The position numbers were made by a program. From Candidatus Micrarchaeaceae archaeon (GTDB taxonomy: Archaea; Micrarchaeota; Micrarchaeia; Micrarchaeales; CABMGC01), in NCBI GenBank assembly GCA_038877255.1, contig JAVYWZ010000015.1, positions 1-17,761 on the forward strand: 17,761 nucleotides of DNA, written 5' to 3'. This document shows positions 9,001-12,000 of the stretch, one piece after another (within the stretch, counting starts at the first letter, position 1; the number at the start of each line of letters is the position of its first letter).

Positions 9001-12000
9001 CCTGCTCCAGGGGCTCAACATTTATATAAAACTTTGAAAGCCTGTTAGGTGCCTTGCCCTGTAGGTCTTCCACTTTGTCTTCAATAGTTTCTCTATAAAC
9101 CACTATAGGGTCGCTTGTTGTTATTGGTATTTTGTAATCGTTCTTGAGCTTTGTCTCTATTATTTCAAGATGAAGCTCGCCCAGTCCGCGTATGATGTGC
9201 TCTCCAGTTTCCTGGTTTATCTCTACTTTGAAAGTAGGATCTTCTTTTGAAAGCTCCCTGAGCGCCTCTATAAGCCTTACTGTATCTTTTGTTTCTTTTG
9301 CCTCTATCGCCTTTGCAACAACAGGAGGTGAATAATGCCGTATCTCTTCGAAAGGCGTTATGCCGTTTTCGCTTATGGTGTCTCCTACTGAGATATCCTT
9401 CAAGCCTATAAGTGCTGCTATGTTGCCTGCAGGTATCGCTTCTACAGGGACGCGGTCAGGTCCCATATAAAGTGCTACCTGCTGCAGCTTTTGCTTATCT
9501 GCGAGGCCGCTTATGCTAACCTCTACGCCTTTGTGTGCCACGCCTGAAAATATCCTGCTTATTGCTATTTCGCCTGCATGTTGATCGTATGCTATGCTAA
9601 AAACAACAGCAGCTAAGCCTGCGTTTGGGTCTACTTCTAGCATTGCTTTGCCTTCCTTGCTGTCAAGCTCGCCGTGCCAGATATTTGGCAATCTATATGC
9701 CTGTGCCTCTTTAGGGTTAGGCAGGTGCTCTACTACCATGTTGAGTATCGCTTCGTCTATGGGAGCAGTTTCCCTTAACTTTTCAAGGTCGCCTTTTGCA
9801 GTGAGCTCGAAGATGTCTTTAAAAGTTATCTTGTACTTGTCCATGATTCTTATTGATATGGCCCATCGCTCATATGCAGAGCCGAATGCCACATTGCCTG
9901 CGTTTACGCTTATTTTCCATTTCTCTGCGAGCTCTTCACCGCCGTACCTTGCAATTAGCTTGTTTATGTTGTTTATCAATTCTAGCAATCTTTCATATGT
10001 TTGCTCTGGAGTAAGCTTTAGCTCTGTAAGCAATCGGTCAATCTTGTTTACAAAAAGCACAGGCTTTGCCTTCTCCTTGAATGCCTGCCTAAGCACTGTT
10101 TCAGTCTGAGGCATTACGCCTTCTACTGGGTCTACTACAAGCACAACGCCGTCAACCGCACGCATAGACCTTGTCACATGGCCGCTGAAGTCTACATGAC
10201 CTGGCGTGTCTATCAGGTTTATTATGTAGTCTTCGCCTTTGTAGTCAAATGCCAGGGATATGTTTGCAGATTTTATCGTGAGCCTTCTCTCCTTTTCGAT
10301 CTCATCATAATTAGTATAAAGGACTTCGCCTGCAACTGTCTTCGATATTATGCCTGCCTTTGCAAGAAGGGCGTCTGTAAGCGTTGTCTTGCCATGGTGA
10401 ACATGCGCTATTATTGCAACGTTCCTCACTTTGCTTATATCGTGCATTATCTTTACTACTTCCTCTGCAACAAACTCCTTCCTTACCATAGGATTACCTT
10501 GCGCTTCTTGCTATCCTCTCTTGCTCTACTTTCCTTTTTATGGCATAGCTGTTAGGGTCTTTGCTTGCAGCAAGCATTATCTCATTAGCAAGCGCTTCTT
10601 TCAACTCTTTCTTATTCTTGAATGCGCTTATTAGCGCAGCAAGCGCTATGTTCCTAAGTGCAACGTCAAGCCTTCTAGAAGCACTTATTCCCACTGCAAC
10701 ATTGTAGTTTATCCCTCCGTAGCGTATGCGCGTAGTGTCATCTATTGGTGCTGAATTTTCGAGAGCGTCGACAAAAACCTGTATTGGATTTTTGTTGGTT
10801 TTGCTGTGTATAATGTCAAATGCGCGTTCGACTATGCCTATGAGCTTTAATTTCTTCCCCTGTAGCCTGCCTTCTGTTCTTATCACTATGCCGCCTATCT
10901 TTTTTCCTGTTCCGCCTCGCATGAGCTTATTGACAAGCCGCTCGACTATGCTGACTTGCGTCACGTAATGGGCTTTGTCTTTTCTCCTGCCGAACGTGTT
11001 TATGTTTGATCTGGGTGTCAGCAAGATGTAATTGGCAAGGCTAGCATCTTCTATTACAACGTCTTTGGTGCTGTACTTGCCAAATACTAATTGTTCTTCC
11101 AAGCCTATGTTGCGGACTTTCTTTGCTGCCGGTTTCCTTGTTCTAGCTGTTTTTTCATCGCCGTGCTCGTTTGCTACATTGTTAGTATTGTCTGATTTAA
11201 AGTCTGTTTTGTTGCTTGTTTCTTCTTGCACTTAATCATCTCTTTGGTTTTTCCTTCCTGCCCTTTACTATCTCATAAAGGTCTACGCCGTTGACTTTTA
11301 TTACCCTATACTTAAGCCCGGGTATGCATCCCATCTGGCCACGCTGAGAGCCGCCAAGGCCTTGCACCATTACTTCATCATGCTCTTCTATGAAGCCTAT
11401 TGAGCCGTCATAAGGAACGTAAGCACCAACAACCTTGCCATTCTTGGTAAGCTGCACACGGACGCACTTTATAAGACCTGAGTGCGGCTGCTTCTGCTGG
11501 AGGCTGAACTTCTGGAGTACAAGTGCCCTTGCCATTGGTACTGTTCCTACAGGATCATACTTTTGCTTTAGCTTGAAGTACTTTCTTTTCCACCACTTCT
11601 TGAGCATGCGCTCCTTGTGCCTCTTCTTTACGAGCTTCAACGCAGCGAATTCACCGTTTGACAATATAGCACCTTAATCATAATTTTCTTCCAGTATTTT
11701 AGAAGCGCCAGGATCTAATATTGCTAGCGTGCTAACCCCAAAAGGCTTGCCGCACACGGCGCCAAGTTCTACTGGATTGCCCTTGAAATTGAGGAGCTTT
11801 GTGCCTGCAAGTTTGCACGCATGTGTTATGTCACTTATGTTATCTCCTTTACTCGAAGACGCAACAATAGCCACCTTCGCTTTGCCCTGTGTTATTGCTT
11901 TTATAGTTTCCTTTATTCCAAAGCTTATGCTGCCTGTCTCTACTGCAAGCCTCAAATCGGCACTTAAATCTGGCATTCAAAAACCTGACTGATTATTCTA

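Follow-up and report, generated by a model that had tools for sequence, protein, structure and literature searches.

The window analysed here comprises positions 1 to 17,761 of contig JAVYWZ010000015.1 (assembly GCA_038877255.1), from a Candidatus Micrarchaeaceae archaeon of the order Micrarchaeales, and carries on its reverse strand a compact set of translation genes. The unit now begins with rpl30e (eL30; 11674..11976, 100 amino acids), recognised by NF002172 at 97.9 bits, above cut-off, and continues with rps12 (uS12; 11236..11664, 142 amino acids, TTG start; TIGR00982 above cut-off), rps7 (uS7; 10494..11231), which has a charged N-terminal extension and scores above cut-off with both NF003106 and TIGR01028, and EF-2 (8297..10489; TIGR00490 above cut-off), the last gene of the conserved unit. 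Between rpl30e and rps12 lie just 9 nucleotides (11665..11673, same strand), as a preliminary description of this DNA had reported, without any remnant of nusA; their sole content is a GGTG motif that, judged from sequence, is the probable ribosome-binding site of rps12. That nusA normally occupies this position, as the same description held, is borne out by 36 outgroup loci selected for having NusA, in which the interval measures 413–820 nt; the protein in the slot in outgroup Micrarchaeota is a typical two-KH NusA1 of 133–167 amino acids.

On the 5′ side of rpl30e there is an AT-rich leader (11977..12060, reverse strand) with TTTAAA and TTAAAT boxes 48–79 nt from the gene, a candidate promoter of the detached rpl30e unit; a scan of the window with a sigma-70 model, which does not cover archaeal promoters, gave no more matches than chance. 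About 500 nt without a recognised gene separate rpl30e from a signal-peptidase-I-like gene (12484..13467, reverse strand; TIGR02228, E 4e-10, below cut-off), which occupies the place of rpoA2 in most outgroups. Its product has a long insertion and no Pfam match. When upstream frames were compared by eye, a gene resembling it stood 5′ of rpl30e in roughly 10 of the 30 order loci, in both large families. Rfam and tRNA searches of the window returned no match. Elsewhere in the window, the EF-2 P-loop (10370–10400) reads AHVHHGKT where the other loci compared have the usual AHIDHGKT, a 147-residue orphan of NusA size beside hjc (4343–4786) belongs to no family and has no KH motif, and a pilin-like gene with a class III signal peptide, assigned by eye, precedes genes for two unannotated proteins of the membrane or surface, 684 and 179 amino acids long (998–4270).

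The preliminary description also stated that no NusA is found elsewhere in the genome, and broader searches gave the same answer. In this MAG, which is 92% complete, the sole TIGR01952 match is uS3, at E 0.027. A custom NusA1 profile made from 33 Micrarchaeota NusA1 proteins, the most divergent included, was run with filters off against 12,463 six-frame stretches of the genome, and its best match, at E 0.016, was a non-KH beta-barrel protein; in an equal search space the profile recovered nine held-out divergent outgroup NusAs at E ≤ 2.7e-14, and it detects the Nanoarchaeum equitans (N. equitans) protein at E 2e-24. The worry that a very divergent KH protein had been missed was not substantiated: single-KH profiles yielded no NusA candidate in the source genome, and the double-GxxG KH motif pair, present in 31 of 35 reference NusA1s, occurs in none of its candidates. 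The other KH proteins of this genome are uS3, Pno1 and an Rrp4-like protein, the last recognised by eye. NusA2 (NF005013), a zinc-finger and KH-like protein, is often encoded within an alba-nusA2-aspS arrangement; it was not found in the source genome, where alba lies next to an aspS-family gene in divergent orientation. Across the phylum, none of 71 order genomes has a NusA2 match and 28 of 80 others have strong ones, and this patchiness outside the order means that its loss is probably older or separate.

The absence of NusA1 extends across the Micrarchaeales, taken here by database order label. An initial count with TIGR01952 of 0 of 42 order genomes against 39 of 39 other Micrarchaeota became, when the model was run on 401 phylum genomes (178 of the order and 223 others), 0 of 178 against 194 of 223 above the curated cut-off. 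No order genome produced a match better than E 3.7e-5, whereas 218 of the 223 others reach E < 1e-7, a few of them via NusA2. Eleven outgroup cases were weak: eight reflect gaps in the assembly or the ends of contigs, one is a NusA1 in place, and two genomes (G339 and G373) keep weak matches. The claim of an order-wide loss was then extended with the custom profile to a sample about six times larger than the initial 42, and an archaeal NusA1 is missing from all 248 order genomes, of which 86 are of high quality; the absence rests on profile searches, and the cross-genome search begins with a loose first look. Its sole strong match is a bacterial-type NusA in genome G416 on a 1.7-kb contig of 64% GC (C252, L053), with a rimP-like gene upstream when read by eye, and it was rejected as a bacterial contaminant binned into an order genome. 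Weak matches in G021 and G366 were rejected as lying inside unrelated long proteins. Custom-profile matches in 53 other order genomes have E ≥ 9.7e-5, and nearly all of them fall on the second KH in frames the size of uS3; by extension from the source genome, these would be uS3. The tallies include two genomes flagged as unpublished (G029 and G197), and no claim depends on either.

Thirty L30e-S12 loci fetched from 37 order genomes tell the same story at the level of gene order. The spacer in these loci is 0–46 nt long (median 9.5), and the junction without nusA lies inside a contig in every one; the singleton basal family f3 has the same junction. Most of these genomes are incomplete MAGs, the source genome included, and so an artefact of assembly or binning might be entertained; the intact junctions refute it, as do seven single-contig order genomes that have no NusA, and we regard its probability as practically nil. 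In a FastTree analysis of three genes (452 columns) the order is one clade (support 0.98) at the end of a long stem branch, within which f3 is sister to all other members (support 0.98). By database label and tree together, the losing genomes form a single clade, and nusA is retained in the other orders.

One might imagine instead that nusA was relocated out of the operon and then diverged past recognition. NusA1 can drift: in the outgroup genus g114 it scores only E 3e-9 to 3e-13 with TIGR01952, and in one member (G175, L035:1501-1941) it has lost the first GxxG loop and still follows L30e, no longer preceding S12, which may represent a step towards loss. The long stem of the order and the fact that the operon did break also leave room for relocation. 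On the other hand, the whole-protein, single-domain and motif searches of the source genome were empty with filters off, although they detected uS3, scores for the neighbouring L30e, S12 and RpoA2 are normal, and an intermediate is kept in 0 of 248 order genomes, so that we consider a hidden copy very unlikely.

Set against the canonical rpoH-B-A1-A2-rpl30e-nusA-rps12-rps7-EF-2 cluster, the source genome keeps the order and strand of rpl30e, rps12, rps7 and EF-2, with the rps12-rps7-EF-2 tandem retained, and differs in that nusA is gone, the cluster is split between rpoA2 and rpl30e, and an Lsm gene follows rpoA2. The preliminary description cited an outside genome with the order rpoA2-L30e-nusA-S12-S7; rpoA2 does precede rpl30e directly in 30 of 39 outgroup loci, and the arrangement does not extend to the other nine, which are split. 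All nine fall in a single clade in which nusA persists, and the split by itself is thus not enough to eliminate it. Within the order rpoA2 directly precedes rpl30e in 0 of 30 loci; in the source genome it lies on a separate contig (C1), where rpoH-B''-B'-A1-A2 are still together, apart from the rpl30e unit. RpoA1 and RpoA2 are a single open frame of about 1180 codons, that is, a fused largest subunit, in L136 (G366, of family f3) and L137 (G339, of f11), and are split in most others.

The Lsm gene stands directly behind rpoA2 in 21 of the 30 order loci, in both large families (C1:43114-44469 in the source genome; loci L106-L135), and after an insertion, within about 1.4 kb, in two more; rpoA2 is near 0 of 15 outgroup Lsm loci. 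It is conceivable from this arrangement that Lsm/SmAP took over co-transcriptional RNA binding, its move into the RNA polymerase operon being a non-orthologous displacement of NusA, and a review describes SmAPs as binding RNA and ribosomal proteins. Several observations do not fit. Six of the 30 loci have no Lsm within 1.45 kb of rpoA2 (one more stops at a contig end), the basal family f3 lacks both nusA and an Lsm after rpoA, so that the Lsm link is probably younger than the nusA loss, and the Nanopusillus order lost nusA with rpoA2-L30e intact. In addition, 60 of 61 phylum genomes have just one Lsm copy, and a tRNA-Ala(GGC) gene lies close behind it in 8 of 30 order loci and also in 8 of 15 outgroup Lsm loci, from which the move may be a plain rearrangement. 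We therefore judge displacement by Lsm unlikely.

Parallel losses were found in the Nanoarchaeota. In a sample of 221 genomes NusA1 is present in 213 and eS27 in 214, and only N. acidilobi is without both. The Nanopusillus order (Nanobdellales) has rpoA2-L30e-S12 without nusA in 20 of 21 genomes, 16 of these 20 having been examined at the locus only, and N. equitans alone keeps L30e-nusA; whole-genome searches of N. acidilobi, YN1 and Nst1, two of them complete, found no NusA copy. A further L30e-S12 junction without nusA occurs in G666, and four more Nanoarchaeota genomes (G543, G568, G598 and G654) gave no NusA match and, in the L30e search, L7Ae matches only. In G696 a PhoH-like ATPase is fused to a C-terminal KH sequence (L463:10529-11644), which matches the NusA profile over 100 positions at E 2.5e-7. 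Genome size alone is not the cause of the loss, since NusA1 is retained in genomes as small as those of N. equitans (0.49 Mb) and g114 (0.5–0.6 Mb) and is missing from members of the Micrarchaeales with 1.0–1.2 Mb. A BLAST subtraction with N. equitans proteins, in which 241 of 249 candidates were scanned, supplied leads only, as it included many false absences (e.g., Hjc and L30e).

A second ribosomal gene follows a similar distribution. eS27 scored above cut-off in 0 of 64 order genomes against 62 of 67 others, and it is cleanly gone from between L44e and eIF2a in the source genome (C6:9044-9060) and in G366, G002 and G016 (order loci L393, L396 and L397). In the Nanoarchaeota, where eS27 is otherwise rarely missing, it was not found in N. 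acidilobi, Nanobsidianus or YN1 and is present in N. equitans. The N-terminal tail of uS15, which we take to contact eS27, is altered as well: the two sequences compared from the order have lost its conserved Trp, and N. acidilobi has lost the tail itself. In addition, among 14 small-subunit rows of a published table, eS27 alone has a sharp dropout in the last block.

These coincidences suggest a reading in which the loss of nusA is functionally tied to a remodelled small subunit, NusA1 acting at the uS15/eS27 region, such that once one of NusA1 and eS27 is lost the other becomes dispensable. The eukaryotic protein eS7 sits near the uS15/eS27 region and reportedly descends from NusA2. A contact between uS15 and eS7 is described in PMC9932298. 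Yet a test of NusA1 and eS27 as an obligate module failed, as their losses do not always coincide: family f8 deleted eS27 independently, leaving a clean junction (L394, L395), and kept NusA1, and G696 (read over about 578 kb, overlaps included, of some 600 kb) and G666 have no detected NusA1 and keep eS27. Nor does NusA1 match any chain of the solved archaeal ribosomes, and small ribosomal proteins such as eS17 are labile in this phylum. In the supplement of PMC6249222, NusA1 is scored as essential in both Sulfolobus islandicus (S. islandicus) and M. maripaludis, whereas eS27 is non-essential in S. islandicus, scores that derive from transposons and may reflect polar effects in such an operon. 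A complex prediction for NusA1, eS27 and uS15 scored 0.00, which is evidence neither way. On balance a functional tie to the small subunit is a tentative possibility. Somewhat less probable still, and rather doubtful in our view, is the stronger version in which NusA1 would be mainly a 30S assembly or coupling factor at uS15/eS27, rather than a transcription factor, and a functional forerunner of eS7, and two DPANN orders would have rebuilt that face of the 30S, losing both proteins and eroding the uS15 tail.

Our best reading of these data is that the nusA loss is real, order-wide, recurrent and reductive. It is probable that nusA, encoding the two-KH NusA1, underwent one true deletion in the stem of the Micrarchaeales, that this was repeated independently elsewhere, and that the cells do without NusA or a dedicated substitute. 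The data show the ancestral rpoA2-L30e-nusA-S12-S7 cluster split between rpoA2 and L30e, nusA removed without remnant so that rps12 comes right behind rpl30e, NusA2 absent, eS27 lost at the node of the nusA deletion, and the one Lsm gene of both large families shifted to a place behind rpoA2. We infer that NusA1 is an accessory RNA chaperone acting on nascent transcripts or maturing small subunits, a step that may become dispensable once the expression machinery of a symbiont is pared down. Independent deletions of this kind took place in the Nanopusillus order and in one or more further Nanoarchaeota genomes. The essentiality scores for NusA1 speak against this reading in that they lead one to expect some compensation; the remaining elongation set seems intact, given that Spt5, TFS, Rpo4, Rpo7 and a KH-containing beta-lactamase-type RNase are listed for Mia14 in PMC5498576.

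Published tables contain the same absences as entries. In Golyshina et al. 2017 (PMC5498576, Supplementary Data 3 and 4), nusA and S27e are zero for both Mia14 and Nst1, and NadR, Trm11, S27e and NusA are the 4 of 218 core genes absent in these two and present in N. equitans; the text mentions that S27e is missing in Mia14. Of the 276 columns in Dataset S7 of PMC12892359 (2025), the final 120 are zero for arCOG01760 and the final 97 for eS27, columns that probably correspond to the Micrarchaeales and a reduced Anstonellales genus; a divergent copy such as the one in g114 can escape tables of this type. The idea that Mia14 was the only tabulated absence therefore has to be given up, as Nst1 and many genomes of the 2025 dataset are also zero. 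The word NusA is absent from the accessible main texts of PMC5498576 and PMC12892359, in which we likewise found neither a test of synteny nor any mention of an order boundary, an operon break or a parallel loss, and from that of PMC13718433 on the Nanobdellales; the supplements of PMC7414124 have no matching rows. A literature search for NusA in DPANN or Micrarchaeota, which left most subscription journals outside its reach, returned no paper describing the loss, and in the texts searched it has apparently gone unremarked. New here are the rpoA2 break, the loss of eS27 at the same node and the parallel loss in the Nanopusillus order.

This is not a new system; it is an instance of DPANN reductive loss with testable leads. 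As in other such cases, an otherwise conserved information-processing gene is missing from host-dependent lineages, the members of the order being tiny symbiotic archaea. NusA1 (arCOG01760, recognised by TIGR01952; A. pernix structure 2cxc), which no order genome yielded, differs from the usual losses in being scored as essential in two free-living archaea, a phylogenomic marker, and kept in N. equitans, the smallest genome tested. A 2018 review (PMC7289017) states that all archaea encode NusA homologues, a claim of universality that is removed by an order of 248 species without NusA and by an independent loss beside N. equitans. A 2021 review (PMC8116511) describes the function of archaeal NusA as unclear, and the paired keeper and loser lineages are natural knock-outs from which that function can be learned; since there are cultured members on the losing side, the composition of ribosomes and RNA polymerases can be compared directly, with eS27/uS15 and Lsm as two concrete leads. 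A 53-marker phylogenomic set also includes NusA1, and estimates of completeness and trees for the losing groups therefore systematically lack this marker.

Other features of ribosome production were considered for co-loss or as causes. Nob1 (PF17146) was rejected as a co-loss, having gone undetected in 80 of 81 phylum genomes with one weak partial match, and so was eS17, which was found in just 3 of 71 phylum genomes, so that its absence is not specific to the order. As both are mostly absent although Pno1/Dim2 is present in the source genome, maturation of the 16S 3′ end must differ. Unlinked rRNA genes were rejected as a cause of the nusA loss because N. equitans has them and yet keeps NusA. 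In the source genome the 16S and 23S genes are on different contigs, and at C9:13626-14198 the 16S gene is some 500 bases longer than that of N. equitans, the additional bases being probably an intron.
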